A stretch of DNA of 64,000 bases from Nitrospirota bacterium. Lineage in GTDB: Bacteria; Nitrospirota; Thermodesulfovibrionia; Thermodesulfovibrionales; JdFR-88. The stretch is from assembly GCA_021789935.1 (NCBI GenBank), contig JAJYIR010000013.1:1651-65650 (forward strand). The letters are read 5' to 3'. Under the pieces are notes generated by a model that was not told the origin of the DNA, did no database searches, and was given only the letters and a program-made list of their open reading frames with translations. The position numbers and the translations under genes were made by a program. Within the stretch, counting starts at the first letter, position 1. The number at the start of each line of letters is the position of its first letter. Below are positions 17,692 through 43,244 of this stretch, one piece after another.

Positions 17692-17697
17692 ATGTAT

Positions 17698-17725
17698 TTG
17701 AAAATCGCCGCTCTCAGTGTAGTAT
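17698..17725 (+). promoter_or_regulatory. putative promoter TTGAAA-N16-TAGTAT for the trehalose cluster
   Basis: It lies inside the 5' extension of ORF 17692. This supports the ATG at 17749, which has a GGGAGGTGG Shine-Dalgarno, as the true start. Confidence 0.4.
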
Positions 17726-17748
17726 TCTTATTAAGGGAGGTGGTAAAT

Positions 17749-19658: not shown

Positions 19659-19693
19659 TAAAGAGGTTTTTTTATTTTTTGGCCCGGGAGAAA

Positions 19694-24188: not shown

Positions 24189-24216
24189 AAAACAAATCGG
24201 TGTAATCAGCAATTAA

Positions 24217-27243: not shown

Positions 27244-27269
27244 AAAAGCAGAAGGAGAGGATTTTTGAT

Positions 27270-29375
27270 TTGGACGAGCAGCTGATAAACGAGCTTGCGA
27301 AGACCATGGGCATAATGCCTGATTTTTATGATATATGGGGAAACCGGCACGACATAACCATTGAGACCAAAACGGGCGTGCTAAGGGCCATGGGCCTTCC
27401 AGTGGAGGACGAAGATGCCCTGAGGGTGTTATTGGAAAAAAGGCTCGAACCGGCGGTGCTGGAGCCTTCGGTCGCCGCGGAAAAGAATTCGGTTTTCAAG
27501 GTGTACGTCTGCCTTCCCTCATGCCTTGGCCGGACCCCTATCCGCATATTTCTTGAAGACGAGAAAAAGGACGTGCGGAATTGGTCCGTCAGGGAAGCCC
27601 CCGAAGAAGTCCTCGAGTTCAGGGGCCGTAAATACGGAAAATATCCCGTGGAGATCGGACCCCTCCCACAGGGTTATTACACTCTTTCCATCCACGCCCC
27701 TGGCAGGATAAGGGCCAGGTCCCGGTTGATAGTAGCGCCGCGGACATGCTACCTGCCGGAGGAATACATGAAATCCTGGGGCATCAACCTTGCCCTTCAT
27801 GAGATACGTTCAGGCGGCAACTGGGGAATCGGGGATTTCAGGGACCTGGGTTTCATAATGGACGTGGTGGCCGGGCTGGGTGGTGATTTTGCCGGTGTGC
27901 TTCCCCTGCATCAAATCCCGCTTCCCGAAAGCGTCAGCCCTTATTGGCCCTTAAGCAGGCTTTACCGCAATTTCATCTTCCTTGACTTGGAGGGCGTGCC
28001 GGAATTCAATGCCGCAGGCAGGGGCGGCCTGCAAAAAGAGATAGATGCCCTCATGGGGGCCCGGCACGTGGATTATGGCGGCGTGCATGCGCTTAAGCTG
28101 CGGATTCTTAAAGAGATGTTTGCCCGTTTTCGCAATGAGCATTATCCGGCCCGCACCGAAAGGGGACAGGCCTTTGAGGCCTTTATGGAAAAAGAGGGGG
28201 GCGCTCTGCTGGGCTACGCCACCTTCATGGCCCTGAGTGAGGTCCACGGGACGAACTGGAAGAATTGGCCTCGGGAGCTGAAAGACCCCCGCGGCGGCCC
28301 GGTGAAGGATTTCAGGCAGCAAAACATTGGAGCGGTGCTTTTTCATGTCTATGTCCAATGGCTCATAGACAGCCAGCTTGAAAACCTGTCCAAACGGGCC
28401 GCCAGAAACGGCATGCGCTCCGGCCTTTACCTGGACCAGGCCATAGGCACGGTCTCAGGTGGGGCCGACGATTGGATATATGGGGAATGCTTCGCCATTG
28501 GGGCCAGCGCCGGCGCGCCGCCGGATGAGTTTAATATGAAGGGGCAGAACTGGGGCTTTCCCCCCATGGCGCCGTACAAGATGCGGGAGTCCGGCTTCGA
28601 GGCCTTCATAGGGACCGCCTGCAAGAACATGGAGCACGCCGGGATGCTGAGGATTGACCACGCGCTTGGGCTGTTCCGCCTTTTCTGGATACCGGAGGGG
28701 ATGGAGCCATGGCAGGGGGCCTATGTAAAATACCCCGCGGAAGAGATGATGGGAATACTGGCCATTGAAAGCAGGCGGCATAAGACGGTTATAGTTGCGG
28801 AAGACCTGGGGACCGTTGGGCCGGAGGTGCGCGAGGCCCTGATGTCCAGGAATATGCTTTCCTACAGGCTGCTTATCTATGAGAGGCTCTATCCTTCCCC
28901 GGACCTTGTGCCTCCCGGCCAGTATCCCCGGATGGCCTTCTGCGCGGTAAGCACCCATGACCTGCCTACCCTTTACGGCTGGTGGGCCGGGCATGACATG
29001 GAAGTGAAACACTCGCTGTCCCTGTACCCTTCCGGGGATTCCTACAGGGAAGACCTTGCTGCAAGGGAAAGAGACAAGGCGATAATCCTGGCCGCCTTGA
29101 AAAAGGAAGGCCTCATGCCGGATAATTATAAAATGCCCGCAAATATGAATGAGGAACTCATGCTTGCCATATACAGACATCTTGGCAGAACGCCATGCCT
29201 TTACGTTTCTGTAAGCCTTGAGGACATATTCAAATCCCTTGAACAGCCAAACCTTCCGGGAAGCCGTGATGACTATCCTAACTGGAAGATGAAGACCCCC
29301 ATGCCCATAGAAGCCATGGCCGGCCCGGCGGCGTCTTTTGCCGGGGTCTTCAGGCAGGAAGGCAGAGGGCGTTGA
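27270..29375 (+). CDS. malQ: 4-alpha-glucanotransferase (GH77, long form)
   Basis: TTG start 9 nt after GGAGAGG. Motifs: LRIDHALGLFRLFWIP, VIVAEDLGTV, STHDLPT. Confidence 0.9.
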   Translation: MDEQLINELAKTMGIMPDFYDIWGNRHDITIETKTGVLRAMGLPVEDEDALRVLLEKRLEPAVLEPSVAAEKNSVFKVYVCLPSCLGRTPIRIFLEDEKKDVRNWSVREAPEEVLEFRGRKYGKYPVEIGPLPQGYYTLSIHAPGRIRARSRLIVAPRTCYLPEEYMKSWGINLALHEIRSGGNWGIGDFRDLGFIMDVVAGLGGDFAGVLPLHQIPLPESVSPYWPLSRLYRNFIFLDLEGVPEFNAAGRGGLQKEIDALMGARHVDYGGVHALKLRILKEMFARFRNEHYPARTERGQAFEAFMEKEGGALLGYATFMALSEVHGTNWKNWPRELKDPRGGPVKDFRQQNIGAVLFHVYVQWLIDSQLENLSKRAARNGMRSGLYLDQAIGTVSGGADDWIYGECFAIGASAGAPPDEFNMKGQNWGFPPMAPYKMRESGFEAFIGTACKNMEHAGMLRIDHALGLFRLFWIPEGMEPWQGAYVKYPAEEMMGILAIESRRHKTVIVAEDLGTVGPEVREALMSRNMLSYRLLIYERLYPSPDLVPPGQYPRMAFCAVSTHDLPTLYGWWAGHDMEVKHSLSLYPSGDSYREDLAARERDKAIILAALKKEGLMPDNYKMPANMNEELMLAIYRHLGRTPCLYVSVSLEDIFKSLEQPNLPGSRDDYPNWKMKTPMPIEAMAGPAASFAGVFRQEGRGR

Positions 29376-30707: not shown

Positions 30708-31778
30708 TTAAACGTTGATGCTGGAGGCCAGCTTTGCCGTGAGGTCACCTACCTCTTTCGTGCCCATGCCCATCTTGCCCGCGGCCAGGCTCTTTATATG
30801 TTTTCCAGTGACTTCCATTACGGCGGCCTCTATCGCCCTGGCGGCGTCTGCCTGGCCAAGATGCTCCAGCATCATACCCCCGGCGCTTATGGCGGCCAGC
30901 GGGTTTATGACGTTTTGGCCCTTATATTTGGGGGCCGAACCTCCGATGGGCTCGAACATGGAGACCCCGGCCGGGTTGATATTCCCCCCGGCGGCAATTC
31001 CCATTCCGCCCTGTATCATGGCGCCAAGGTCCGTTATGATGTCCCCAAACATATTGTCCGTGACCACGACATCGAACCACTCCGGGTTTTTAACAAACCA
31101 CATCGTTATGGCGTCCACGTGGGCATAGCCGGTCTTTACATCCGCGTACTCGGGCGCTATCTCATTGAATGTCCTTTCCCACAGGTCGAAGGCAAAGGTG
31201 AGCACATTTGTCTTCCCGCAGAGTGTAAGGTTTTTACGCCTGTTCCTTTTCTGCGTATATTCGAAGGCGTATCTCAAGCATCTCTCGACGCCTTTTCTGG
31301 TGTTTATGGACTCCTGTATGGCCACCTCGTCGGGCGTCCCTTTTTTAAGAGTTCCGCCTGCCCCCGTGTAAAGCCCCTCGGAGTTTTCCCTTATAACCAC
31401 CAGGTCTATATCATTCGGGCCTTTGCCCTTAAGCGGGCAGTCCACGCCGGGATAGAGTTTTATGGGGCGCAGGTTGATGTACTGGTCCAGCTTGAAGCGG
31501 AGCTCAAGGAGGATGCCTTTTTCAAGGATGCCCGGTTTTACGTCCGGGTGCCCTATGGCCCCGAGGTATATGGCATCGAATTTTCTAAGCTCATCCAGGG
31601 CGCTGCCCGGCAGGGTCTCGCCCGTTCTAAGATAGCGGTCCCCTCCAAAATCGAAGTTGGTGTACTCCAGCTTGAAGTCGAAACGGCCGGCAACGGCGTT
31701 TAAAGTCTTTATGCCTTCGGCTATTACCTCCGGGCCTGTGCCGTCTCCGGGTATCAAGGCGATTTTGTAAGATTTCAT
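30708..31778 (-). CDS. leuB: 3-isopropylmalate dehydrogenase family enzyme (LeuB; tartrate/D-malate dehydrogenase-like subtype)
   Basis: IPGDGTGPEV, VIRENSEGLY, NMFGDIITDL, GSAPKY motifs. It follows leuD. The subfamily cannot be resolved by eye. Confidence 0.8.
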   Translation of the reverse strand: MKSYKIALIPGDGTGPEVIAEGIKTLNAVAGRFDFKLEYTNFDFGGDRYLRTGETLPGSALDELRKFDAIYLGAIGHPDVKPGILEKGILLELRFKLDQYINLRPIKLYPGVDCPLKGKGPNDIDLVVIRENSEGLYTGAGGTLKKGTPDEVAIQESINTRKGVERCLRYAFEYTQKRNRRKNLTLCGKTNVLTFAFDLWERTFNEIAPEYADVKTGYAHVDAITMWFVKNPEWFDVVVTDNMFGDIITDLGAMIQGGMGIAAGGNINPAGVSMFEPIGGSAPKYKGQNVINPLAAISAGGMMLEHLGQADAARAIEAAVMEVTGKHIKSLAAGKMGMGTKEVGDLTAKLASSINV

Positions 31779-31845
31779 ATGATATCTCCTTCTGTGATAA
31801 ATAAATTAAAAAACAAAAACAAAAATAGAGTAAAAAGTAAAAGAT

Positions 31846-32340
31846 CTATTTGCGCGACGCCAGTTTTTTCTTTGTCCATTCGACAAGCCCGCCTGCCTCT
31901 ACAAGCTCACGCATGAAAGGCGGTATGGGGCTGGCGTTGTAAGTCTTGCCGGCGGCGCGGATGGTGCCGTTGCCGGTATCTATCTCTATAACGCTGCCCT
32001 CCGGGATGTTTTCAAAGAGTTCGGGGCATTCGAATATGGGCAGCCCTATATTGAACGAGTTTCTGAAGAATATGCGGGCGAAGCTTTTGGCCACCACGGT
32101 GTTTATGCCCGAGGCCTTGATGGCCAGAGGGGCATGTTCCCTTGATGAGCCGCAGCCAAAGTTCTTGCCGGCCACGATGATGTCCCCGGGCCTGACCTTG
32201 CCGGGGAAATCCTTGTCGGCGTCCTCCATGACATGTTTCGCCAGCTCCGCGGGGTCGGATGTGTTCAGATACCTGGCCGGTATTATCGCGTCCGTGTCCA
32301 CATCGTCACCAAATTTCCAGACCCTTCCTTTTATGACCAT
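31846..32340 (-). CDS. leuD: 3-isopropylmalate (or homoaconitate) dehydratase small subunit, archaeal type
   Basis: KGRVWKFGDDVDTDAIIPARYL and GKNFGCGSSREHA motifs. 164 aa. Confidence 0.88.
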   Translation of the reverse strand: MVIKGRVWKFGDDVDTDAIIPARYLNTSDPAELAKHVMEDADKDFPGKVRPGDIIVAGKNFGCGSSREHAPLAIKASGINTVVAKSFARIFFRNSFNIGLPIFECPELFENIPEGSVIEIDTGNGTIRAAGKTYNASPIPPFMRELVEAGGLVEWTKKKLASRK

Positions 32341-32629: not shown

Positions 32630-35077
32630 TTACGCGGGATCCACCTTGACGGCGGCGATGGGCGCCTCCCCGTTTTTGGAAGGCAGCGTAAGCAGGTTCA
32701 CCTTTGCGTGGGCAAAATGCGCCGGAGCAAAGACCATTCCCTGCGGCACCTCATCCGTCACCCTGGCCTTCAGGTAGATGGCCTCGCCATTCCGGCCGCT
32801 GACCTTTACAAAACTATCGTTATATATGCGGCGGGCATCCGCGTCCGAGGGGTTTATCTGAAGGTATGCGTCAGGCGCAGCGGAATCCAGGTTGTTGGAT
32901 ATCGTGGTAAGGCTCCCGGAGTGCTGCATAAGGTTGCCCGTGGCAAAAAGAAGCGGATGCCCGCCATCGGCAGACTCCCTTGTTTCCTGCTCCACCGGTA
33001 TAAAGACGGGATGCGCCGTCTCCTGCCTTTGCTCAATGTCCGCAAGAGCGCTTGCCGAGAGCCCGGCAAAACTTTTGGCGTCCAGGTCCGTATGCATGAG
33101 TCTTCCCAGGTTTCTTAATATCTTCCAATCCGGAATGCCTTGCCCGATTTCGGACAGACACTTGACGATCTTTTGCGGTTTGCCGGTCATGCCCACGAAG
33201 GTGCCTTCCTTTTCCCCCCAGCCGGAGGCGGGAAGCACGACGTGGGCGAGCTTTGCAGTGGCGGTCATCATTATGTCCTGGACGACGAGGAGTTCCAGCC
33301 CGCCCAGTGTGTTCATCACCCTGGTGGTATCCGGGAAGGTGACCACCGGGTTTTCACCCATTATAACCAGGGCCTTCATTTGGCCGCCGTAAAGCATCTC
33401 CACGGCGTCAAGGCCCGTCTCGCCTCCTTCAAGCACCATTTGGGTCCCCATGGTGTTTGCGAACTCTGGCGGCAGGCCCAGCGCCTCCGGGCCCCTGCCA
33501 AGCAGTATCGCCAGGTCCATAAGGGCCAGCGCGGTGCCTTCGCCCTTTGTGTTCTCCGAGCTTCCGAAACATGCCATGAACATCGGGTTTTTTGCGGCCG
33601 CAAGCGCACTGGCCGCATGCCTGATGTCCAGCTCGGATACCCCGGCCATGACGGCGGCCGCGGAGGGCTTGTATCTTTCGAGGGTTTTTTTGAGTTCATC
33701 GAATCCTTTTACGGCTTCGGCCTTCTTATCGAAAAGGTCCGCTTCGATAAGCGCGCTCATGATGCCGTTTACAAGGGCCACGCCGGTTGCGGGCCTTATC
33801 CGCAGCCACTGGGAACTCCATCTTGAAAGTTTCGACTCCCTCGGGTCGGCCACTATTAGAGTGGCCTTGAGGTCCCTGTGCGCCGCAAGCGCCTTCAGCC
33901 CGTAAACGGGGTGTGTGGATGTGAGGTCGGACTCCAGCACGAAAATGACGTCGGCCTTAAGGGGAGCGTCAAGGTCGAGGGCCAGCCTCGAAATGCCGAA
34001 TGTTTTTTTAAGCGCCTCCACCTGTTTGGCATAGCCAAGCCTGGTCCTCGAATCTACGTTTTTGGAGCCCAGGGACAGGACCATGAACTTTTTGAGCATG
34101 TAGTTGTCTTCGACTGAGCAACGCTCAGAGCCCAATGCGCCTATGGCCCGGGGGCCATGCGCCTCTTTTATTTCCGCAAGCCTCCTGGCCGTGAATTCAA
34201 GGGCCTCCTGCCAGCTGGCGGGCTCAAGTTTGCCTTCTTTTCGCAGGAGGGGGGTTGAAAGCCTGTGTTCCGATTCTATGAAATCGAACCCGAACCTTCC
34301 CCTTGGGCAGAGGTCTCCCTTGCTTATGCCTACGCCGTCCTTGCCCCTTGCGCGCAGGATTTGGCCGTCCCTTAAGCTCAGGACGGAAGTGCATCCAACG
34401 GAACAGTAGGGGCAGATGTTTTCCTGCTCGTCCATGAACCACACCCTGGAGCGGAACTTATAAGACTTTGTCCCCAGGGCCCCCACGGGGCAGGCATCCA
34501 CGCACTGGCCGCAGAACTCGCAGTCCAGCGTTTCCTCAAACGCGGGGCTGACCTTTGTCTTGAACCCCCGTCCGATCAGGTTAAGGGCGCCCACACCCTG
34601 GTGCTCTTTGCATATTCTTACGCATTTGCCGCAGAGGATGCACCTGTTGGCGTTTCTTTCTATCAATGGCGCGGCCGTGGACTCCGGCTCGTGCTTCCTC
34701 TCATCGGCAAACCTGCTGGCCACCGGCCCGTATTTAAATGCCAGGTCCTGGAGATCGCATTCCCCGGCCTTGTCGCAGACGGGGCAGTCAAGCGGATGGT
34801 GCACCAGCAGCAGCTCCAGGACGGTCCTCCTGGCCTTCTCAAGCTTCGGCGTCTCCGTATGTATGATCATTCCGGCCTTGACGGGCGTGGAACAGGAGGC
34901 CAGGAACTTATGCATCCCTTCCACCTCGACCAGGCACAGACGGCATCCGCCGTAAGGCAGCAGCCTCCTGTCCCAGCAGAGGTGAGGTATATATATGCCG
35001 TTTGCAAGCGCTGCCTGGAGGATGGTGGTTTTGGGCTGCGCCTGTATGTTTTTGCCGTTTATGACGAACTCTATCAT
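32630..35077 (-). CDS. NuoG-like iron-sulfur subunit with a degenerate molybdopterin-oxidoreductase domain
   Basis: The start is trimmed to MIEFVINGK (ATGA overlap with the upstream stop). It has a 2Fe-2S site, a His-ligated 4Fe-4S site (HHPLDCPVCDKAGEC), two ferredoxin-type 4Fe-4S sites and CPYCSVGC. Where formate dehydrogenases carry Cys/Sec-His, this protein reads NVDSRTRLGY. Confidence 0.85.
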   Translation of the reverse strand: MIEFVINGKNIQAQPKTTILQAALANGIYIPHLCWDRRLLPYGGCRLCLVEVEGMHKFLASCSTPVKAGMIIHTETPKLEKARRTVLELLLVHHPLDCPVCDKAGECDLQDLAFKYGPVASRFADERKHEPESTAAPLIERNANRCILCGKCVRICKEHQGVGALNLIGRGFKTKVSPAFEETLDCEFCGQCVDACPVGALGTKSYKFRSRVWFMDEQENICPYCSVGCTSVLSLRDGQILRARGKDGVGISKGDLCPRGRFGFDFIESEHRLSTPLLRKEGKLEPASWQEALEFTARRLAEIKEAHGPRAIGALGSERCSVEDNYMLKKFMVLSLGSKNVDSRTRLGYAKQVEALKKTFGISRLALDLDAPLKADVIFVLESDLTSTHPVYGLKALAAHRDLKATLIVADPRESKLSRWSSQWLRIRPATGVALVNGIMSALIEADLFDKKAEAVKGFDELKKTLERYKPSAAAVMAGVSELDIRHAASALAAAKNPMFMACFGSSENTKGEGTALALMDLAILLGRGPEALGLPPEFANTMGTQMVLEGGETGLDAVEMLYGGQMKALVIMGENPVVTFPDTTRVMNTLGGLELLVVQDIMMTATAKLAHVVLPASGWGEKEGTFVGMTGKPQKIVKCLSEIGQGIPDWKILRNLGRLMHTDLDAKSFAGLSASALADIEQRQETAHPVFIPVEQETRESADGGHPLLFATGNLMQHSGSLTTISNNLDSAAPDAYLQINPSDADARRIYNDSFVKVSGRNGEAIYLKARVTDEVPQGMVFAPAHFAHAKVNLLTLPSKNGEAPIAAVKVDPA

Positions 35078-36939
35078 CTCGTCTGCACTCCTTTGGCCTG
35101 TTCGATTAATTCTTTTGCCAGGCTCCCCGGGCCTGTCTTGAGCGCCCCGAATTTGCACGCCTCATAGCAGGACCGGCACTTTATGCACATGGTCTGGTCT
35201 ATGACGTGGGGTGTTTTCTTTTCGCCCGACACCGCTTTTTGCGGGCACACCCTGGCGCAGGCCCCGCAGCCTTTGCACGTTTCGGGGTCTACATAGAAGG
35301 TCACTAAAGGTCTGCAGACCCCGGCCTTGCACCATCCCTCGTTTATATGGGATTCGAACTCCTCCCTGAAATATTTTATGGTAGTCAGCACCGGGTTGGG
35401 CGCGCTCTGGCCCAGGCCGCACAGGGACGTGTTTGTGATGTCCTGGGACAGGTCCTGCAGAAGCTCTATGTCCCCTTCCTTGCCCCTGCCCTCGGTGATG
35501 TCCACGAGCTTGTCGTGCATGACTTTTGTACCTATCCTGCAGGGAGGGCATTTGCCGCAGGACTCATCCGTGGTGAACTCCAGGAAGAATTTCGCCACGC
35601 TGACCATGCAGTTGAAATCGTCTATTACGACCATCCCCCCGGAGCCGACGATGGCGCCGGTCTTAGCGATGTCCTCGAACGTGACGGGCGTGTCCAGAAG
35701 CGCCTCCGGTATGCAGCCGCCCGAGGGGCCGCCAAGCTGTACGGCCTTGAACTTCCTGCCCTTCTTCATGCCTCCGCCGATGTCGAAGATTATCTTCCTC
35801 AGAGGCATGCCCATGGGCACCTCAACAAGGCCTATGTTGTTTATGGCCCCGGTCAGGGCGAACACCTTTGTGCCCGTGGATTTTTCCGTGCCGAGGCTCT
35901 TGAACCATCTTGCGCCGTTTAAGATTATGAGCGGGATGTTTGCGTATGTCTCCACGTTATTAAGGACGGTGGGTTTTCTCCACAGCCCCTGGGTGGTGGT
36001 ATGGGGGGGTTTTGGAATGGGCATACCCCGCTTTCCCTCTATGGAGCGCATAAGCGCCGTCGCCTCGCCGCATACGAACGCGCCCGCGCCCAGGTATATC
36101 TCTATGTCCAGGTTGAAGCCGGTGCCAAGGATGTTTTCACCCAGCAGGCCGTATGCTTTTGCGTCATCTATGGCCTTCTGCAGCCTCTGTACGGCAAGCG
36201 GGTACTCGGCCCTGACGTATATGTATCCCTTGCTTGCGCCGATGGCCTTTGCCCCTATTAGCATGCCCTCCAGCACCACATGAGGGTCGCCTTCCATGAT
36301 GCTCCTGTCCATGAAGGCGCCGGGGTCTCCCTCGTCCCCGTTGCAGAGGATGTATTTGAGCGGGCCGGGCACCATGTAGCAGAGCTCCCATTTAAGGCCG
36401 GTGGGGAAACCGGCGCCGCCCCTGCCCCTCAGGTCCGAGGCCTTGATCTCAGCTATTATTTCCTCCGGGGTCATGCTGGAAAGGGCCTTGGCGGCGGCCT
36501 GGTAGCCGTCCCTGGCGATGTATTCCTCTATATTGTCGGGGTCTATGAGCCCCTTGTTCCTTAGTGCGCGGAGCACCTGGAGGTTGAAAAAGGGTATCTC
36601 GCTCATGACGGGCAGGACATTTTTTTTCACCGGCTCCTTGTACATGAGCCTTTCCACCGGCCTGCCCTTTAGCAGGTGTTCCTCCACTATCTGGGGCACG
36701 TCCTCCGGGGTCAGCTTCTCATAGAATGTGCCGTCCGGATATACGGTCATGATGGGGCCCTGGGCGCAGAAACCGTTGCACCCCGTTATGACTATGTTTA
36801 TCTCTTCCTCAAGCCCCTTTTTGCGGAGTTCGGCATCGAGGGCCTGCTTCACTTTAAGCCCGCCGCCTGCCATGCAGCCGGTCCCTCCGCATATCATCAG
36901 GTTAGCCCTGAAATTGTCCATCTTTATGTGTTCCTCCAA
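35074..36939 (-). CDS. NuoF/HydB-like NAD(H)-binding flavoprotein with extra N-terminal 2Fe-2S and C-terminal 2x[4Fe-4S] domains
   Basis: GRGGAGFPTGLKW, DESCGKCPPCRIGT, an N-terminal thioredoxin-like CGGTGC...CNGFC, and C-terminal CKGCGACARVCP and CIKCRSCYEACK. Confidence 0.9.
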   Translation of the reverse strand: MEEHIKMDNFRANLMICGGTGCMAGGGLKVKQALDAELRKKGLEEEINIVITGCNGFCAQGPIMTVYPDGTFYEKLTPEDVPQIVEEHLLKGRPVERLMYKEPVKKNVLPVMSEIPFFNLQVLRALRNKGLIDPDNIEEYIARDGYQAAAKALSSMTPEEIIAEIKASDLRGRGGAGFPTGLKWELCYMVPGPLKYILCNGDEGDPGAFMDRSIMEGDPHVVLEGMLIGAKAIGASKGYIYVRAEYPLAVQRLQKAIDDAKAYGLLGENILGTGFNLDIEIYLGAGAFVCGEATALMRSIEGKRGMPIPKPPHTTTQGLWRKPTVLNNVETYANIPLIILNGARWFKSLGTEKSTGTKVFALTGAINNIGLVEVPMGMPLRKIIFDIGGGMKKGRKFKAVQLGGPSGGCIPEALLDTPVTFEDIAKTGAIVGSGGMVVIDDFNCMVSVAKFFLEFTTDESCGKCPPCRIGTKVMHDKLVDITEGRGKEGDIELLQDLSQDITNTSLCGLGQSAPNPVLTTIKYFREEFESHINEGWCKAGVCRPLVTFYVDPETCKGCGACARVCPQKAVSGEKKTPHVIDQTMCIKCRSCYEACKFGALKTGPGSLAKELIEQAKGVQTR

Positions 36940-36992
36940 CGGAAAAATTGGATATCTTGTTTTTTTCTATGATCTTTTTTTCTGCTTCCGGC

Positions 36993-37376
36993 TCAATAAG
37001 AGTTCTCGCTGCCCATTACCAGGGCATATTCCTGAACGGCATCGCCCCCCATGATGTGCTCCGTAAATATCCTCTTTATCTTTACGGCGTCCAACTGGCA
37101 GTATTTGACCGGGGCCTGGCCCGTTATCTCCACCGTGGCCATGGGCTCCTTGCTGCAAAACCCGGCGCAACCCGATGCCGTGACGATAACGTCTTTAACG
37201 TCGTTTTCCGCCAGGGCCTCGACGAGGGCGCTCATAACAGTTCTGGCCCCGGCGGATATTCCGCAGGTGCCCATGTGTATAATTACCCTGGCCCTGTGGT
37301 TTCCGTGCCTCAGGGTGAAGGTGGCCTCATACCTCTCTTTTATCTTTTTCAGGTCATCTATGGTCAGTCTTTGCAC
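36993..37376 (-). CDS. thioredoxin-like [2Fe-2S] ferredoxin (HydD-like small subunit)
   Basis: 127 aa with the pattern HMGTCGISAG...ASGCAGFCSKEP. Confidence 0.8.
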   Translation of the reverse strand: MQRLTIDDLKKIKERYEATFTLRHGNHRARVIIHMGTCGISAGARTVMSALVEALAENDVKDVIVTASGCAGFCSKEPMATVEITGQAPVKYCQLDAVKIKRIFTEHIMGGDAVQEYALVMGSENSY

Positions 37377-37403
37377 GAACGCCTCCTTTTAGGTATGCGG
37401 TCC

Positions 37404-38261
37404 CTATTCATACTGGGCAAGGATGTCCAGTGTCTTTACCGGGTTTACGGAACCGTGTGTGTCCTTGTCCACCACTACAACCGGGGCAAGGCCGCACGCG
37501 CCAAGGCACCTTACGCTTTCAAGCGAGAATTTTTTATCGGCCGTGACTTCCCCGATATCTATATTCAATTGCTCCTTCAGCCTCGCCAATATCTCCTCCG
37601 CCCTTTTCACGTAGCACGCGGTGCCCAGGCAGACCCTTACGTTGTGCCTGCCCTTGGGCTTCATGGTGAAAAAAGAGTAGAAGGAGACCACCCCGTGCAC
37701 CTCGCTTACCGGCAGGTTCAGCCCGCGGGCTATGTGTTTTTGGACAACCGGCGGCAGGTAGCCGATCAGATTCTGGGCCTCCTGGAGCACCGGGATAAGG
37801 CTTCCCGGCTTGTCTTTGTGTTTTTCAATTATCCCGGTCAGCTTTTCAGCCGTCTCCCCGGTGAAATCCTGGGATTCCGCCTTCCCGGATTTTTTCCTGA
37901 CCTCCATTGCCTTCGCTGCGGTCTCGATGAGCAGTGAGGGCGAAAACGGTTTGGGCAGGTAGTCTATGATCCCAAGCGCAAGGGCCTCCTTTATGCTTTC
38001 CTGGGAAGGATGGCCGGTAATAAGCACCAGGCATATTTCAGGGTTTTTGGCCCTCAGCTTCCTCATGAACTCCATCCCGTCCATGCCGGGCATCTTTATA
38101 TCGGTAATGACGAGGTCGTACGGCTTTGCGCCTTCGAGCATCTCGATGGCCTTAAGGGCGGAGAGGGCGGTGCTCACATCGTATCCCGCCGGCGAAAGTA
38201 TCCGCTCACAGCTTTTAAGTATTACTTCCTCATCGTCGACAACCAGAACGCTGCCTTTCAT
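37404..38261 (-). CDS. response-regulator receiver domain fused to a NuoE/HydC-like [2Fe-2S] subunit
   Basis: The N-terminal REC is complete (VVDDEE, ITDIKMPGMDG, LITGHPS, LPKPF). The C-terminal NuoE fold is present (IPVLQEAQ..., CLGTACY, CLGACGLAP). Confidence 0.88.
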   Translation of the reverse strand: MKGSVLVVDDEEVILKSCERILSPAGYDVSTALSALKAIEMLEGAKPYDLVITDIKMPGMDGMEFMRKLRAKNPEICLVLITGHPSQESIKEALALGIIDYLPKPFSPSLLIETAAKAMEVRKKSGKAESQDFTGETAEKLTGIIEKHKDKPGSLIPVLQEAQNLIGYLPPVVQKHIARGLNLPVSEVHGVVSFYSFFTMKPKGRHNVRVCLGTACYVKRAEEILARLKEQLNIDIGEVTADKKFSLESVRCLGACGLAPVVVVDKDTHGSVNPVKTLDILAQYE

Positions 38262-38337
38262 TTAATTGAATCCTCCTAAACAGAAAAATCCGGTGCTCTT
38301 TCTTGTTTCTTCCATGCGTGAATCCATAAAGAAACCT

Positions 38338-38967
38338 CTAAACTCTATTATGACTCTTTATGGCCGTCTTTGTCTGGTCTCTGCCTTCCATGACGGCCGT
38401 GTTAATGGCATCCCTTACCATAAGAAGTATCTCCGGCAGGTTTACCGGGGTTTCCCCAAGCGCCTCCTTCAGCGCGTCCGAATCGAACCCGTAATGGAAA
38501 CTGCTTCCGCTGGCGGGACCGCCGTTGATGTCATAAAACAGGACGTACCGGATCTCGGGGTGGCCGCACATCATCGAAAGCATGGTGGCCCCGATGTTCC
38601 CGAGCGGCTTTCTGTCTATATGGCCGAACCTGAAAGAGGCAAAAAGGGTGGTCCCCTTTCCCGGTTCCGAATCCAGACGGAACTCCCCGCCGCACTCCGT
38701 GGCCGCCTGCTTCAAAAGGGGTATCCCCAGCCCAAAGCGCTTTTTTTGCTTTTTGCTTTTGCTTTTATTTTTGTCCCCGTCGTAAGTAAAAAAAGGGTCC
38801 TCGGCCTTAAGCAGGACGCCGCCGTCCATGCCGTGGCCGTTGTCCTCCACGCTCAGTGAATAATTATCACTGCCGGGGTCTTCCGCTATCCGTATAACTA
38901 TCTTTGTAGCCCCGGCGTTTATCGAGTTTTCAGCAATATCGAGTATATGGAGCGATAGATCTTCCAT
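38338..38967 (-). CDS. stand-alone histidine-kinase-like ATPase (HATPase_c) protein
   Basis: N box HILDIAENSINAG, G1 DNGHGM, G2 GLGIPL, then GKGT. No DHp/His domain. It contains a KNKSKSKKQKK insertion. Confidence 0.8.
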   Translation of the reverse strand: MEDLSLHILDIAENSINAGATKIVIRIAEDPGSDNYSLSVEDNGHGMDGGVLLKAEDPFFTYDGDKNKSKSKKQKKRFGLGIPLLKQAATECGGEFRLDSEPGKGTTLFASFRFGHIDRKPLGNIGATMLSMMCGHPEIRYVLFYDINGGPASGSSFHYGFDSDALKEALGETPVNLPEILLMVRDAINTAVMEGRDQTKTAIKSHNRV

Positions 38968-39722
38968 TAATCAAAAACCGCCTTTCTTCCGTCTGCCGCC
39001 TTAAGTGCCAGGGCAATTTCTTTCAGGCTTGCCTCTTTCAGCAGAAACCCCGTCCTTTTCCCGCCTATGTCCTCCAGCCTGTGCGCATCGGAGCAGCGAA
39101 GCCCCGGCTGCCCCTGGAGGGAAAATGGTTTTTGTCTTTGCCCGCAGACCTCAAGCGCGTCGAACTCCAGGTCCGCCGGAATGAAGCCGAGCTGGGAAGT
39201 GACGCTGAAAGAGCCCCGGTCGGCATGGCTTGCTATCGCCACTCCCCCAAGGCTGTGGATGGCCGCCACCAGGCCGGAAAGCCTTATGCCCGTTGCGCCG
39301 GAAAGGGGCCTTCTGCTGAAGCCCAGCACTTCGTCATCCTCGTTCACTATGACCTGCCCGAACGGAGGGGGCTGTCTGTCCCCCTTTTCCCTTCCCTGCG
39401 GCCCCCGGTAAAAACTGTCCAGTTCCCTGTAGACGCTCTCCTGCATCCTGAGGGCGGCCTCCAGAGTTTCAAAAAGGGCGAGCACGTGGACTTCCTCGGA
39501 GGAGGTTATCTCCATTGCGGGCACCAGGGAGACACCGGCTTTTGAGGCCGCGCGGGCAGCGGCTTCCAGGTTCTCGCAGGAGTTGTGGTCCGCTATGGCC
39601 ACTATGTCCAGCCCCGCTTCCGAGGCCTTGCGCATGATCCGCCATGGTGTCATGTCCAGCTCTGCGCAGGGGGAAAGACAGCTGTGTATGTGCAGGTCCG
39701 CCGAAAAAAACCTCACTGCCAT
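38967..39722 (-). CDS. PHP-domain phosphoesterase
   Basis: DLHIHSCLSPC N-terminal metal motif and AIADHNS. Its stop overlaps the next start (TAATG). Confidence 0.8.
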   Translation of the reverse strand: MAVRFFSADLHIHSCLSPCAELDMTPWRIMRKASEAGLDIVAIADHNSCENLEAAARAASKAGVSLVPAMEITSSEEVHVLALFETLEAALRMQESVYRELDSFYRGPQGREKGDRQPPPFGQVIVNEDDEVLGFSRRPLSGATGIRLSGLVAAIHSLGGVAIASHADRGSFSVTSQLGFIPADLEFDALEVCGQRQKPFSLQGQPGLRCSDAHRLEDIGGKRTGFLLKEASLKEIALALKAADGRKAVFD

Positions 39723-39752
39723 TTTTTTGCCCCGGTCACAGGCTTTTTTATT

Positions 39753-40097
39753 TTACCTGACCTCATTTTTCAAAAGAAGGTTATAGACCATCCCAACCAT
39801 CTCGTATGTCTGCAAAGAGGTGCTCATGACCGGTATGAACTCGGCCTCCGCTTTCTCCAGAGTCTCCGCATCTATCTGCTTGCCCCCGGTCACTATTATT
39901 CCGGCCAGGCCCTTTATTGCCGCCACCGCCGCCACATTGGGATGGGTCTGCCGCGTTATCCATATGTTGCCTTCCTTGCCGTTTGCAAGGACGTCGGAGA
40001 GCATGTCGCTCGCATAACAGCCGTTTATGACGGCCTCCGTATTGCCATTGTTTCTCATGTCCATATCCAGCCTGTCTATAAGTTCCCGTACGGTCAT
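39753..40097 (-). CDS. DRTGG domain protein
   Basis: 114 aa. The segment GNIWITRQTHPNVAAVAAIKGLAGIIVTGG is typical of DRTGG. Confidence 0.75.
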   Translation of the reverse strand: MTVRELIDRLDMDMRNNGNTEAVINGCYASDMLSDVLANGKEGNIWITRQTHPNVAAVAAIKGLAGIIVTGGKQIDAETLEKAEAEFIPVMSTSLQTYEMVGMVYNLLLKNEVR

Positions 40098-40102
40098 TTC
40101 AA

Positions 40103-40594
40103 CTATTCCTGCCTTGCATTTAATTGTGGTGTTTTTAGGTTTATGGTGATCTCAAGTGTTGTGCCTTCGCCTGGCACGGAATCTATTGAGAGGGCGTCGG
40201 CGTTCTTTTTTATGTTGGGCAGGCCCATGCCGCTGCCCCACCCGAATTCCCGGGCCCAGACGGGCGCGGTGGTGTAGCCCTCCTTCATTGCAAGCCCTAC
40301 GTCCTTTATTCCGGGCCCCATGTCGGTGACAGTGATCGTAAGAGTTTCACCCTCTATTGAGTACCTCAGGCTCCCCGCCACAGCATGGATTATGACGTTT
40401 ATCTCCGCCTCGAAGGAGCAGATGGCCGCCCGCCTGATAAGCTGGGCCGGCACCCCAAGCGCGGCAAGCTCGCAGCGCAGGCTCTTTGAGCCTGCCCCCG
40501 CGTCCGAGAAGTCCCCTCCGTTTAGGGGGAAGTAGATGTGCTGCCCGCCGTTTACGGCACCGTCCGTATCTTCTCTTTTTTCCCCTGAACTCAT
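40103..40594 (-). CDS. RsbW-like anti-sigma regulatory factor / serine kinase (HATPase_c_2)
   Basis: The start is trimmed to MSSGEK (ATGA overlap with the upstream stop). Motifs: EAEINVIIHA, DMGPGI, GMGLPNI, GEGTTL. Confidence 0.8.
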   Translation of the reverse strand: MSSGEKREDTDGAVNGGQHIYFPLNGGDFSDAGAGSKSLRCELAALGVPAQLIRRAAICSFEAEINVIIHAVAGSLRYSIEGETLTITVTDMGPGIKDVGLAMKEGYTTAPVWAREFGWGSGMGLPNIKKNADALSIDSVPGEGTTLEITINLKTPQLNARQE

Positions 40595-41358
40595 TCCGTC
40601 AAAACGCCGGAGCTTACGCGGAGCAGCCATACGAGCCAGTTTTCCGAAAGGCATTCCGAAACAAAACCCGGCAGCGTCTCGTTTGCCTTTTCGTTTCTGT
40701 TTATCACGATACCGCTCATCGGCGCCTTCAGCTCCATTATCCTGCCTTCCCCGAGCAGGACCCTGGCAAAGGTCTCCCCGGAAGTGATGGCGGGCTGGTC
40801 GATGAGGTCTATGTAAAGCATATGCCCTCCCAGGTACCATTGCCTGACATCGAAACCTATCTCCCATCCTCCATTTACAGGCCTTGCCCATGCCCCATCC
40901 TTGTAATAGATGGCCTGTTCGTCCATCTCCGACGCTACCGTCACATATTGCTTGAACTGGTCAATAAAGGCCTTGCGGAGTATCCATCCCCGCTTATCAA
41001 AGACCTTTGCGGCGACGTTTTTCATGAACTCGGGCGTGAAGGGTTTTTCGAGGAACTCGAACGCGCCAAGCCTTATTGCCTCCTTGGCGTCTTCGAGCGT
41101 GGGGTATCCGGTTATCATAACCACATCGGTTTTGGGCTGGATGACGCGGGCCTCTCCCAACACCTCTATCCCGTGTATGTCGGGCAGCCTGATGTCGGAT
41201 ATTAGGAGATCAACCTCTTCGGAGTTCAATCTCTTTAAGGCCTCGGCCCCGCTGGTGACCGCATTTACCGTGTAGCCTTCCGCCCCCAGTATCCTTTTGC
41301 AGCTAAGACCCACTACCGGATCATCATCTACAACCAGTATCTTTTTCCCTGCTGCCAT
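40591..41358 (-). CDS. response-regulator receiver domain fused to a glycine-cleavage-H-like (lipoyl-fold) domain lacking the lipoyl Lys
   Basis: The start is trimmed to MAAGKKILVVDDD, which follows GGAGG. The REC is complete (SDIRLPDIHG, ITGYP, EKPF). The C-terminus aligns by eye with GcvH (YYKDGAWAR...IGFD...KAPMSGIVINRNE), but GEGR replaces ESVK. Confidence 0.7.
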   Translation of the reverse strand: MAAGKKILVVDDDPVVGLSCKRILGAEGYTVNAVTSGAEALKRLNSEEVDLLISDIRLPDIHGIEVLGEARVIQPKTDVVMITGYPTLEDAKEAIRLGAFEFLEKPFTPEFMKNVAAKVFDKRGWILRKAFIDQFKQYVTVASEMDEQAIYYKDGAWARPVNGGWEIGFDVRQWYLGGHMLYIDLIDQPAITSGETFARVLLGEGRIMELKAPMSGIVINRNEKANETLPGFVSECLSENWLVWLLRVSSGVLTE

Positions 41359-41400
41359 TACGACCTCAATGCCTCCTTTTATTAAAACATAAACAGTGAA

Positions 41401-41415
41401 GCAATATGTGTGCCA
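41401..41415 (-). promoter_or_regulatory. near-consensus sigma54 promoter TGGCAC-ACATA-TTGC
   Basis: The reverse complement of 41401-41415 reads TGGCACACATATTGC. It lies about 45 nt upstream of the ATG at 41358. Confidence 0.7.
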
Positions 41416-41564
41416 AAATCGCAACACCTTATTTTAAAGGGATTCTTTTTAGGCATGGAAAGTGATATGGGGAGGAAAAGTGAAAGTGTATAAATTTCCT
41501 ATACAGTGGCGGCAAAGCCTGACCTGATAAAAATAATATTAATGTCCCGTTTCATGGGTAAACC

Positions 41565-41999
41565 ATGGAATTTGTATACTGGAGGATGATCATCGAATCA
41601 CCCGGGGCACTTGCCCGCCTCATGAAGGAGTCTTTTGAAAAACTGGGCCCCTACATTGAAAAGCACACGCAAAGGGTTTGCCCCGTCTGCCAAAAAGTCT
41701 GCTGCGCCAACAAGCACGGGACGCCCGAACGTGAAGACTTTCTGTTTTACCGTGCGCTCGGTGTGGAACCTGAGCCCGCCAGAGGGGCCCCCGATGAGAT
41801 ATGCAGTCTGCTTGGCGGCACGGGATGCGAGCTTCCAAGATGGCAGAGGCCCTTCAGGTGCACATGGTATTTCTGCGGGCCGCTTCTGGATTCCATGCGC
41901 CGGGGAAACGGCCGGGAGTACAGGCGGCTCGTGGCTGAATTGGCCCTGCTTGTGGAACTGAGAGGGAGGCTCATAAGCATTGGTCCGCTTCAGGAATAA
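41565..41999 (+). CDS. Cys-cluster protein (YkgJ/CxxCxxCC-like)
   Basis: CPVCQKVCC motif plus further Cys residues (CSLLGGTGC, FRCTWYFC). Its stop abuts the next gene's ATG. Confidence 0.55.
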   Translation: MEFVYWRMIIESPGALARLMKESFEKLGPYIEKHTQRVCPVCQKVCCANKHGTPEREDFLFYRALGVEPEPARGAPDEICSLLGGTGCELPRWQRPFRCTWYFCGPLLDSMRRGNGREYRRLVAELALLVELRGRLISIGPLQE

Positions 42000-43244
42000 A
42001 TGACAGACATCGACAGGATACTTGGCGTTCTCGTTTTCCTGATCGTGCTTGTCAGGAAAAAGGTGCCGGCGGGGGCAGTGCTGCTTCTGGGCTCTCTTTT
42101 GCTTGCGGTCCTTTATCTCATGCCTGCGGGTGTCCTGTTTTCCGCCCTGGAAACGGCCCTGGTAAAAACCCCCGAGGCCGTAAAGGTGGCCCTGGCTCTT
42201 ACCGCCATACGGGGGTTTGAGCTTGTGCTCAGGGAAAAAAAGATCCTGCAGGGGATGATGAATGCCTCAAGGAATTTTTCGAGCGGGAAAAAGGCCCTCA
42301 TTGTTTCCATGCCTCTGCTCATAGGCACCCTTCCGTCAATGGGGGGCGCGTATTTTTCCGCGCCGATGGTGGAGGAGGCCTCAAAAGGGATGGGGCTTGC
42401 CGCGGAGCGGAAAGGGTTTTTGAACTACTGGTTCAGGCACCCCTGGGAATACGTGCTTCCACTTTATCCGGGTATAGTGCTTGCAAGCGCGGTCTCGGGG
42501 ACCAGGCTGGACACGCTGATGCTTTTCAATCTGCCATATGCCCTGGGGGTTGCGGCAACGGGTTATATATTCGGTTTAAGGGGGATCGGGGGCGGGCCCG
42601 CCGCGCGCGAATCCGCGCGGGAAGGCGTCAGGGAGCAAAAAAGACAAAAAAAACAAAAAAGACCTTTTGAAGGTTTTTTGAGTTTTCTGCCAATTTTTTC
42701 CATATTGGCGATGGTCATAATCTTCGGGATGGAGTTCCAGTGGGCCATCCTTGCCGCCCTTGCCGGCCTTTTTGTCTTTTATAAATACCGGCCGTCAGAG
42801 GTATGGAGGGTAATCAGGCTCTCCTTCTCCATGGATGTTTTACTTCTTGTCGCCGGTGTCATGATATTCAAGCAGGTGCTTGTTGACTCCGGGGCGGTTG
42901 CCAACCTGGGCCGGTCTCTTGCCGTGGAAGGGATACCGCTTATGGCGCTGCTTTCCGCCATTCCTTTTGTGGCAGGCCTGCTGACAGGCCATACAATGGC
43001 ATTTGTGGGGGCGGCTTTTCCGCTCCTGATGTCCCTGCCCGGGGGAAGCGGGCCGCACGCCATATCCTTTGCCTTTGCCTGCGGTTTTCTGGGAGTGCTG
43101 CTGAGCCCGGTCCATATCTGCCTGATGCTTTCAAGGGAATACTTCAAGGCGGACCTTTGGGGCATATACAAAAGGACCATACCCGCGGCCGTGGTGATAT
43201 TTATGGTGGCAGTGGGGGAGTACCTCATATTCCGCCCGTTCTGA
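42000..43244 (+). CDS. polytopic membrane protein (possibly a DUF401-type permease)
   Basis: About 10-12 hydrophobic helices in two halves, joined by a charged loop that contains an EQKRQKKQKRP insertion. Confidence 0.65.
   Translation: MTDIDRILGVLVFLIVLVRKKVPAGAVLLLGSLLLAVLYLMPAGVLFSALETALVKTPEAVKVALALTAIRGFELVLREKKILQGMMNASRNFSSGKKALIVSMPLLIGTLPSMGGAYFSAPMVEEASKGMGLAAERKGFLNYWFRHPWEYVLPLYPGIVLASAVSGTRLDTLMLFNLPYALGVAATGYIFGLRGIGGGPAARESAREGVREQKRQKKQKRPFEGFLSFLPIFSILAMVIIFGMEFQWAILAALAGLFVFYKYRPSEVWRVIRLSFSMDVLLLVAGVMIFKQVLVDSGAVANLGRSLAVEGIPLMALLSAIPFVAGLLTGHTMAFVGAAFPLLMSLPGGSGPHAISFAFACGFLGVLLSPVHICLMLSREYFKADLWGIYKRTIPAAVVIFMVAVGEYLIFRPF

Follow-up and report, generated by a model that had tools for sequence, protein, structure and literature searches.

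Within a 64,000-nucleotide stretch of DNA from a Nitrospirota bacterium (GTDB lineage Bacteria; Nitrospirota; Thermodesulfovibrionia; Thermodesulfovibrionales; JdFR-88; GenBank assembly GCA_021789935.1, contig JAJYIR010000013.1, positions 1,651 to 65,650 of the forward strand), which at its full 64-kb length we call the window, the region 32630-41415 holds nine co-directional minus-strand genes, g1 to g9, behind a sigma54-type promoter element. An original prediction, made from the letters and a list of their open reading frames (ORFs), had described this region as an operon that joins signalling proteins to flavin and iron-sulfur subunits with no catalytic partner, and the ORF list places all nine genes at the coordinates it gave. 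Its claim of tight packing, with ATGA and TAATG overlaps and no gap above 76 nt, is borne out by the junctions, which we read directly: ATGA overlaps join g1 to g2 (40591-40594) and g8 to g9 (35074-35077), a TAATG overlap joins g4 to g5 (38965-38969), and the other five junctions have gaps of 5, 30, 76, 27 and 53 nt. The last four genes, we conclude with confidence, encode the core of an enzyme of the Bfu (HydABC-type, electron-bifurcating) family with a BfuA subunit that is not catalytic, and both the BfuC subunit of this core and the product of g1 carry a receiver (REC) domain of the two-component type (Table 1).

Table 1. Genes and upstream elements of the nine-gene block, in the order in which they are numbered (positions are those of the window).
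Feature	Description	Position	Strand	Basis or location
g1	REC + GcvH-like domain without lipoyl lysine, 255 aa	40591-41358	-	PF00072 2.7e-27
g2	RsbW/SpoIIAB-like serine-kinase-type ATPase, 163 aa	40103-40594	-	HATPase_c_2 1.8e-8
g3	DRTGG-domain protein, 114 aa	39753-40097	-	PF07085 1.1e-8
g4	PHP-family metal-dependent phosphoesterase, 251 aa	38967-39722	-	PF02811 + PHP_C
g5	Stand-alone GHKL ATPase domain without HisKA, 209 aa	38338-38967	-	HATPase_c 1.3e-14
g6	BfuC, REC fused to NuoE/HydC-type [2Fe-2S] subunit, 285 aa	37404-38261	-	Response_reg 4.7e-28; 2Fe-2S_thioredx 1.5e-49
g7	HydD-like small thioredoxin-fold ferredoxin-type protein, 127 aa	36993-37376	-	Acetobacterium woodii hydD-position gene
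g8	BfuB/HydB-type FMN/NADH subunit, 621 aa	35074-36939	-	N-terminal [2Fe-2S], B2 ligands, two C-terminal [4Fe-4S]
g9	BfuA, NuoG-type + non-catalytic molybdopterin-oxidoreductase-like domain, 815 aa	32630-35077	-	Pfam
Sigma54 -24/-12 element	TGGCAC-ACATA-TTGC, TGGCACacataTTGC	41401-41415	-	42 nt 5' of g1 ATG (41358)
Palindrome	TGTATA-N7-TATACA, TGTATAGGAAATTTATACA	41487-41505	-	Centre ~82 nt upstream of -24 element

With g6 as the query, a scan of one genome for each GTDB species yielded at least 494 confirmed loci, of which the best 80 were analysed; individual loci are named below by L numbers, and positions that follow such a number are those of that locus. All of the best 80 lie in metagenome-assembled genomes (MAGs) of Nitrospirota/Thermodesulfovibrionia, at 53-91% identity to the g6 query, the closest (91%) being that of MAG WY3.bin168 (contig JAKBYX010000002.1), and at least 80 species-level genomes of Thermodesulfovibrionia have the block. 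Gene order among these relatives defines a conserved core, g1-g6-g7-g8-g9. The signalling cassette often reads DRTGG-RsbW-DRTGG-PHP-HATPase, and its position varies: it is found upstream or downstream of the core or, as in the window, L001, L002 and L004, between g1 and g6. No hydrogenase or formate dehydrogenase (FDH) catalytic gene, FdhA included, occurs in any of the 80 orthologous loci; the scenario in which such loci regularly hold a catalytic gene that was lost here, raised with the original prediction as one that would refute it, therefore does not apply.

The product of g8 scores 820 bits against HydB of A. woodii (7q4v_B), 813 bits against NiFe-HydB (7t2r_B) and 714-772 bits against other Bfu B subunits, those of NfnABC/StnABC lying at 714-725 bits, as compared with 375 bits against E. 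coli NuoF, in agreement with its first description as a NuoF-like protein of the HydB type with extra clusters. Schut et al. 2022 (PMC9304861) tabulate two motifs that read DEGDPGAFMDR and GAGAFVCGE in bifurcating enzymes and DE(G/S)EPG(S/T)FKDR and GAGAY(I/V)CGE in non-bifurcating homologues, and the ligands of the B2 [2Fe-2S] cluster are Cys438, His525, Cys531 and Cys536 in the numbering of Acetomicrobium mobile (PMC9304861). Both motifs are present in g8 in their bifurcating form, at residues 202 and 284, and its C444 (NCMV), H531, C537 and C542 (HINEGWCKAGVC) stand at the B2 positions in the HydB alignment, so that g8 carries every discriminating BfuB residue of those tables. Canonical 419-aa NuoF paralogues that lie beside the block in relatives provide an internal control: they lack the His-Cys-Cys tail, and those of L042, L058 and L075 read DEGEPGTFKDR and GAGAYICGE. 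The additional clusters of g8 are marked by N-terminal [2Fe-2S] cysteines C17, C22, C53 and C57 and by two C-terminal [4Fe-4S] motifs, CKGCGACARVCP and CIKCRSCYEAC, and the protein thus departs from a canonical NuoF, which has about 420-445 aa and no extra cluster domains. As its start codon, the ATG at 36921 is more probable than the TTG at 36939.

The original prediction had named the subunits as NuoE-, HydD-, NuoF- and NuoG-like. All four types are indeed present, but g6 is not a plain NuoE: its NuoE/HydC-type part, with cluster cysteines C211, C216, C252 and C256 that are invariant in 81 sequences, is fused to a receiver domain. Among PDB sequences the small g7 protein is matched by the N-terminal domain of StnB/NfnB/HydB; its cysteines are at 38, 70, 74 and 93, and just three of the usual four occupy motif positions. 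Pfam finds in g9 a NuoG N-terminus followed by Molybdop_Fe4S4, Molybdopterin and Molydop_binding domains, and five Fe-S motifs can be read in it, namely one [2Fe-2S], a His-ligated cluster, two in a ferredoxin-like domain and one in the Mo-domain. Judged by these motifs, the predicted clusters correspond to A1-A5 of BfuA in the 'Type 3' class, in which catalysis takes place on additional subunits. Taken together, g6 to g9 would hold an electron-transfer chain of about 11 clusters, all of whose cofactor ligands are conserved. The enzyme, whose reaction had been called not evident, thus fits a known class, Type 3 of the Bfu family (PMC9304861).

That g9 has no functional FDH site, as had been proposed, is confirmed by its best PDB sequence match, FdsA (6TG9; 394 bits): Cys386-His387 of FdsA ('ARVCHS') align to Gly-Tyr of g9 ('TRLGYA'), and the alignment breaks where the Arg motif is expected, this motif being absent from g9. 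The Cys/Sec (selenocysteine), His and Arg of FDH are likewise missing in all 80 g9 orthologues and in canonical NuoG paralogues. Pfam gives no match to the H-cluster domain PF02906 (Fe_hyd_lg_C) in g9, and the operon encodes no H-cluster protein, sensory hydrogenase or AAA+ activator, again as first described. Nor is there a hydrogenase, FDH, nuo gene, histidine kinase or AAA+ activator anywhere else in the window. The absence of a catalytic partner holds in cis, but in relatives the block is genetically linked to complex I and to nfnAB, as described below.

Both receiver domains have the complete set of acidic pair, phospho-acceptor Asp, Thr and Lys. In g6 these are D9, D10, D54, T82 and K104, invariant in 81 sequences, and in g1 they are D11, D12, D55, T83 and K105, which do not vary among 58 sequences apart from one gap at T83. 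Identity between the two receivers is 40%. The C-terminal half of g1, left unassigned by Pfam in the window protein itself, had been called GcvH-like, and PF01597 (GCV_H) is detected in 46 of 52 orthologues. A fold search with a model of full-length g1 was swamped by receiver domains, and the C-terminal domain was hence modelled separately; with this AlphaFold2 model (pLDDT 86.9) the top 22 Foldseek PDB matches were all H-proteins/GcvH-L (TM about 0.64). The H-protein fold is thus present but the lipoyl lysine is not: the lipoyl Lys of E. coli GcvH aligns to Gly205 of g1, in a column that is Gly in 56 of the 58 orthologues. Because the lysine is replaced by a near-invariant glycine, the domain is predicted to be a protein module and not a lipoyl carrier.

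Among the genes between the two receiver proteins, g2 matches TIGR01925 (spIIAB) at 3e-13, which is under the family cutoff, and Pfam finds no STAS or PP2C domain in the operon, which thus lacks the set that defines RsbW/SpoIIAB partner switching; the DRTGG and PHP proteins sit where the STAS antagonist and the PP2C phosphatase would be. A PDB sequence search gave no match for g3 and generic matches only for g4 and g5, the nearest solved relatives of g4 being nucleotide phosphoesterases. No output domain (DNA-binding or cyclase) was found by Pfam in the operon.

The sigma54 promoter of the original prediction is an exact TGGCAC-N5-TTGC element. It is the single exact match in the 64 kb, with about 0.1 expected by chance; with one mismatch allowed, 4 matches are found and 4.8 are expected, and since the two figures are equal the motif by itself is weak evidence. 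What makes the element credible is that it is kept upstream of g1 orthologues, where at least 9 of its 10 positions are found, 38-99 nt away, in 30 of 58 related loci. It thus has the -24 GG and the -12 GC at the correct spacing, lies upstream of the operon and is conserved, as a sigma54 promoter should be. The palindrome of Table 1, about 82 nt farther upstream, lies where sites for enhancer-binding proteins usually do, and it is a candidate site at which an activator of the NtrC type would bind; the alignment shows TGTAT-N9-(A/G)TAC in common between the window and its three closest relatives (L001, L002 and L003). A second sigma54-like element of the window, with one mismatch (TGGCACAAATCCTGC, 11472-11486, minus strand), lies about 135 nt 5' of a gene for a type IV pilin-like protein that carries an N_methyl motif (10849-11337, minus strand), beside which a second pilin-like gene is found at 10194-10649.

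The original prediction had also remarked on the lack of a sigma54 activator, which is true of the window; in relatives, however, an NtrC-type gene and a histidine kinase gene adjoin the block. A REC-AAA+-helix-turn-helix (NtrC-type) gene lies directly upstream of g1 in L015, L029, L042 and L072, which would explain a sigma54 promoter in an operon without an activator of its own. The gene of a HAMP-HisKA-HATPase kinase is present in 25 of the 80 loci (e.g. L075:7149-8771 and L029:1003-2649). Both CXXCH and CX4-5CH occur in the N-terminal sensor region of 21 of 24 kinase sequences, and CXXCH alone in one more; because these motifs are conserved there, the kinase probably binds c-type heme and would be a periplasmic redox sensor.

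An exhaustive search of 50%-identity representatives returned about 10 clusters that align to full-length g6, with identity down to 32%. Some of these REC-BfuC proteins belong to Bfu clusters with the Hdr-like partners HdrA/MvhD/HdrBC (L084:8999-20882 and L087:4983-20664), one of the two in a lineage with Por_Secre_tail neighbours and the other adjoining a Cache-HAMP kinase, an NtrC-type activator and a DRTGG/RsbW-like/HydS-like set. Another locus (L086:5448-13905) is an array of rpoN, an Fe_hyd_lg_C-plus-FeS domain joined to HisKA-HATPase, an NtrC-type activator and then the Bfu genes, which encode REC-NuoE, BfuB and a REC-fused short BfuA; HoxYH-like NiFe hydrogenase genes adjoin, and the Fe-hydrogenase-like/HisKA-HATPase fusion is a candidate H2-sensing histidine kinase. 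In L088 (10001-11737) a 578-aa protein has the tandem form REC-NuoE-REC-NuoE, and L090 has two separate adjacent genes in its place. Because about 10 REC-BfuC clusters are found in such varied contexts, fusion of a receiver to the small Bfu subunit, often near sigma54 activators, looks like a recurrent means of control of Bfu enzymes. We think it likely that the sigma54 and two-component control of the operon in the window is real.

What such an enzyme might do follows less readily. The account that we favour, without rating it as probable outright, is that of a Type-3 Bfu module under phospho-regulation, whose third partner, most likely complex I, is the product of genes elsewhere. In characterised relatives the BfuBC core couples NAD(H) and ferredoxin. 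The BfuBC core of g6 and g8 would exchange electrons with NADH and ferredoxin, and BfuA (g9) would wire this core to a redox module encoded in trans. The proposal that the third partner is specifically the quinone/membrane part of complex I (its Q and P modules) is one that we hold more loosely, as possible but rather doubtful; the product would be a reversible exchange, coupled to the proton motive force, between NADH plus reduced ferredoxin and menaquinone, catalysed by a 'Nuo-Bfu' that has the genes of its input module outside the nuo operon. Reversal of the reaction, in the ferredoxin-generating sense, is our own proposal. Nuo-Bfu as proposed by Schut et al. 2022 (PMC9304861) is a predicted 14-subunit complex I of the Geobacter type in which BfuABC replaces NuoEFG; these authors gave a thermodynamic argument for it, predicted it in Nitrospirae, whose BfuB clade 39 they assigned to Nuo-Bfu, and listed 17 BfuB clades without assigned function.

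In the same account, expression would depend on sigma54 through an NtrC-type activator and the periplasmic histidine kinase with heme-c motifs, both encoded elsewhere in the genome. The same or a related kinase may phosphorylate both receivers, that of BfuC and that of the GcvH-like protein g1, and phosphorylation would switch the activity, the oligomeric state or the docking of the complex; the g2-g5 cassette would add a second layer of control, held in common with Firmicute hydrogenases. A more elaborate version, speculative and in our view fairly improbable, is that the receivers of BfuC and g1 pair when phosphorylated by the periplasmic heme-sensing kinase and so gate or dock the complex, in effect exchanging NuoEFG, a plain NADH module, and Bfu, a module for NADH plus ferredoxin, as the input of complex I.

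The genetic linkage to complex I is as follows. A nuoABCD(EFG) operon adjoins the block in 21 of the 80 loci, in 20 of them with nuoA divergent from the kinase gene, and in L058 the genes g6-g8-g9-nuoABCDEFG lie on one strand, with nuo starting 72 nt after g9. Two other apparent nuo matches were discarded, one in L053 that is a false match to a g8 fragment and one in L079 (a Ca. Sulfobium MAG) that is a distant NuoCD/NuoB-like cluster of 25-35% identity. This cluster (L079:2032-8065, 5' of the block) encodes a fused NuoC/NuoD-like and a NuoB-like protein and resembles a group-4 membrane hydrogenase or an Mbx-type complex more than complex I.

Several observations weigh against complex I as the partner. 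Wherever the neighbouring nuo operons are visible to nuoE-G they keep their own canonical nuoEFG, and because of this the Bfu module is not simply a missing N-module; it would have to compete with NuoEFG or replace it. The divergent arrangement of nuo across the kinase gene, L058 excepted, may reflect shared regulation rather than assembly. No -24/-12 element is present in the 20 nuoA-kinase spacers, for which reason we dropped the idea of sigma54 co-regulation of nuo, and, as noted, the 64-kb window has no nuo gene. Over its full length g9 is about equidistant from the NuoG of an in-operon Nuo-Bfu (36% identity; L083) and from canonical Nitrospirota NuoG (35%). In addition, other genes keep company with the block. 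In L024 (3491-5753) g8 and g9 are separated by canonical nfnA and nfnB, the genes of NADH-dependent ferredoxin:NADP oxidoreductase; this is a locus whose g8 is 75% identical to that of the window and whose nfnA and nfnB products score 351 bits to NfnI-S and 623 bits to NfnB among solved structures. nfnAB is also directly upstream of REC-NuoE in L088 (7670-9965) and L090 (6253-8531), where the order is nfnAB, one or two REC-NuoE genes and then g7-, g8- and g9-like genes (g8 and g9 of L088 are 65% and 49% identical to the window proteins), and lies 6 kb upstream of REC-NuoE in L061 (1375-3718). Finally, fdhD comes next after g9, or is separated from it by one PAS-GAF gene, in 14 of the 80 loci (L008, L009, L010, L012, L016, L017, L019, L021, L022, L023, L026, L027, L028 and L054) and in a Dissulfurispiraceae locus (L089:15783-16568).

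The nfnAB placements speak for a soluble, cytoplasmic balancer of redox pools that never touches complex I, be it a split form of the Nfn-Bfu transhydrogenase, reaching NADP(H) through an NfnAB/GltD-type partner, or a module co-regulated with NfnAB to adjust the ratios of NADH, NADPH and ferredoxin. Solved NfnA/StnC proteins, which combine a GltD-like part with a BfuA of the degenerate-molybdopterin kind, align to g9 residues 96-660 with 246 bits, which also speaks for this alternative. Yet just 4 loci of about 85 show the nfnAB arrangement, NfnAB by itself makes up a complete enzyme, so that its co-location may mean co-regulation only, the window contains no nfn gene, and g9 lacks a GltD-like NADPH/FAD domain (no Pyr_redox or Fer4_20 match in Pfam). 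We regard this alternative as unlikely, though worth keeping in mind.

A different possibility is that the module is not an enzyme but a sensor, reading the state of NADH/NAD+ and ferredoxin much as sensory hydrogenases read H2, and signalling to other targets through the kinase-like, PHP, DRTGG and REC proteins. Five of the nine genes are of signalling type and no catalytic site is present, the cassette of A. woodii surrounds a sensory-hydrogenase-like gene, and in L086 the Fe-hydrogenase-like/HisKA-HATPase fusion stands beside rpoN, an NtrC-type gene and REC-BfuC. Receiver domains, however, are inputs of a signal and not outputs, the operon has no output domain, the conserved ligands for a chain of about 11 clusters exceed what a sensor needs, and the homologous complex of A. 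woodii is a bulk metabolic enzyme, all of which makes a sensor improbable.

The fdhD neighbours raise a formate-linked reaction, with formate/CO2 as the third substrate, in which g9 would bind a molybdenum or tungsten bis(pyranopterin guanine dinucleotide) cofactor or would dock an FdhA-type subunit, as in the Type-3 Fdh-Bfu of Gottschalkia acidurici. FdhD is an FDH cofactor sulfurtransferase/chaperone, and its linkage could mean that g9 keeps a pterin or that the gene of an FDH partner lies elsewhere; the FdsA match and the retention of the Molybdopterin and Molydop_binding domains also speak for a formate-linked reaction. Against this, the change of Cys/Sec to Gly and of His to Tyr and the loss of the Arg motif extend to all orthologues, the fdhD-linked ones included, no FdhA gene accompanies the 80 loci, and cultured Thermodesulfovibrio is reported to have periplasmic FdhAB only. 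The split g9 ORFs of L013 and L021, considered as a possible selenocysteine FDH, are frameshifts away from the active-site column with no in-frame TGA. A formate-linked role thus has, to our mind, a slim prospect. Very improbable is that g6, g8 and g9 are the NuoE, NuoF and NuoG of an ordinary complex I N-module, set apart from an 11-gene nuo operon as in many anaerobes and oxidising NADH only: the best NCBIfam equivalogs are indeed NuoF for g8 (TIGR01959) and NuoG for g9 (TIGR01973), and nuo operons of cultured Thermodesulfovibrio are reported without nuoEFG, but the scores (480.6 bits with a cutoff of 558.65, and 446.6 bits with a cutoff of 470) are both under the curated cutoffs, the extra cluster domains, B2 ligands and Bfu motifs of g8 are absent from the neighbouring true NuoF paralogues, and the neighbouring nuo operons already have nuoEFG, so that the 'missing NuoEFG' explanation was rejected by the Bfu signatures and the canonical nuoEFG together.

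Parts of this picture have been published already, namely the Bfu family, its Type-3 architecture and the predicted Nuo-Bfu of Nitrospirae (PMC9304861). What appears to be new is a stand-alone NuoG-type Bfu module that is class-wide, with receivers on BfuC and on a GcvH-like protein, with control by sigma54 and a heme kinase, and with a linkage to complex I and to nfnAB that recurs in variable form. The original prediction had called the combination undescribed, and a search of the literature likewise returned no description of it, of a REC-NuoE/REC-HydC fusion or of a DRTGG/PHP-hydrogenase system like that of the window. To our knowledge, the control of Bfu enzyme activity is essentially unknown, and the hydABC cassette of Firmicutes is without an assigned mechanism.

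In anaerobes the balance between NADH and ferredoxin is set by Bfu (HydABC-type) enzymes, and here a distant phylum has kept the cassette and the core after loss of the hydrogenase head. The conserved phospho-acceptor receivers are fused to the enzyme itself, which makes direct phospho-control testable, and they suggest that Bfu enzymes, perhaps in the role of an alternative complex I input module, are switched directly by two-component signalling. Since unrelated lineages also have REC-BfuC, in Hdr-linked as well as other Bfu clusters, control of this kind may be general; if the receivers do pair as proposed above, flavin-based electron bifurcation would be under a general form of post-translational control that has so far gone undescribed. 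The frequent linkage to complete complex I operons also provides a definite setting for tests of the unproven Nuo-Bfu idea, whether as ferredoxin plus NADH input or as ferredoxin reduction driven by the proton motive force, and reverse electron flow, if true, bears on the energetics of sulfate-reducing and autotrophic Nitrospirota.

The rest of the window can be described briefly. A leuD gene (LeuD/HacB-type small subunit) and a leuB-type isopropylmalate dehydrogenase gene (30708-32340, minus strand) follow 289 nt after g9, with no convincing intrinsic terminator between g9 and leuD; leuC is not nearby, and the arrangement is the same in L001. Divergent from the operon, at 41565-43244 on the plus strand, are genes for a 144-aa Cys-rich protein (CxxCxxCC-type, no family match) and a DUF401/TIGR00529 membrane protein; the Cys-rich gene adjoins the block in L001-L003 and is near it in L006 and L056, and only L001 and L002 have the DUF401 gene. 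Farther away on the plus strand, 11665-16053 encodes a 1462-aa protein with two BadF/BcrAD-type ATPase (acyl-CoA dehydratase activase) modules and DUF2229, with no dehydratase partner visible adjacent to it, and 17692-29375 is a glucan/trehalose cluster with DUF5752, a TreT-like glycosyltransferase, two alpha-amylase-family proteins, a GH57 protein with DUF3536 and a GH77 4-alpha-glucanotransferase. Rfam and tRNA scans of the window were empty.

Among known systems, NuoEFG and FdsABG have the overall NuoE/NuoF/NuoG domain plan in common with g6, g8 and g9, from which they differ in that g8 has Bfu-specific motifs and extra cluster domains and g9 is without the Cys-His and Arg motifs. The NfnABC/StnABC transhydrogenases (9BOV, 9N5U, 8OH5) come closer, with a BfuBC core and a degenerate-molybdopterin BfuA like those of g6-g9, but a GltD-like NADPH/FAD domain is fused to NfnA and StnC and none to g9. 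NiFe-HydABCSL of A. mobile (7T2R), the prototype of Type-3 Bfu, has a BfuB nearly as similar to g8 as A. woodii HydB is and a non-catalytic BfuA with a degenerate, molybdopterin-like domain, which aligns to g9 residues 4-638. Its catalysis resides on separate subunits, HydSL, whose genes lie in the same cluster as the others; no HydSL-type genes are present in the window or in the 80 relatives, and g9 has an additional C-terminal Molydop_binding domain.

Nuo-Bfu combines a Bfu-type NuoF with a NuoG-type BfuA of about 820 aa whose Pfam architecture is identical to that of g9. Our example of it is the L083 contig, BfuB-NuoG-NuoHIJKLM, an in-operon Nuo-Bfu that we reached by way of the metagenomic fragment P0243 from a search with the Geobacter NuoF fragment of a supplementary table; g9 aligns with its NuoG end to end (523 bits). 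Nuo-Bfu is itself a prediction, and the window departs from it in that its Bfu genes are not embedded in a nuo operon and in that they come with receiver fusions and a signalling cassette, which described Nuo-Bfu lacks.

The closest overall likeness is to the HydABC(D) bifurcating hydrogenase of A. woodii (7Q4V, 8A5E). Its HydB sequence was taken from the PDB alignment, the protein was found, and its genomic locus (CP002987.1) was compared by tblastn. The genes there run in the order 128-aa gene, RsbW-like (138 aa), sensory-hydrogenase-like (451 aa), DRTGG-like (110 aa) and PHP, followed by HydC, HATPase (189 aa, L081:9033-9602), HydD, HydB and HydA. Homologues of g2 to g8 are colinear with these, except that the HATPase and NuoE-type genes are swapped, and the identities are 42% for g2, 38% for g3, 38% for g4, 35% for g5, 41% for the NuoE part of g6 (to HydC), 36% for g7 and 58% for g8. 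The original proposal that the RsbW-like, DRTGG, PHP and orphan HATPase genes are the accessory set of hydABC is thus upheld, and the same cassette flanks hydABC in Firmicutes other than A. woodii. HydA aligns only with g9 residues 2-213 (40% identity), the C-terminal 600 aa that remain of g9 being NuoG/FDH-like. Compared with A. woodii, the operon of the window is without the H-cluster domain and without the sensory-hydrogenase-like gene between the RsbW-like and DRTGG genes, and it has in addition a REC-GcvH-like gene, a receiver on HydC and a sigma54 promoter. Because g2-g8 are homologous to genes at equivalent positions, the operon is nevertheless the syntenic counterpart of this characterised bifurcating-hydrogenase locus.

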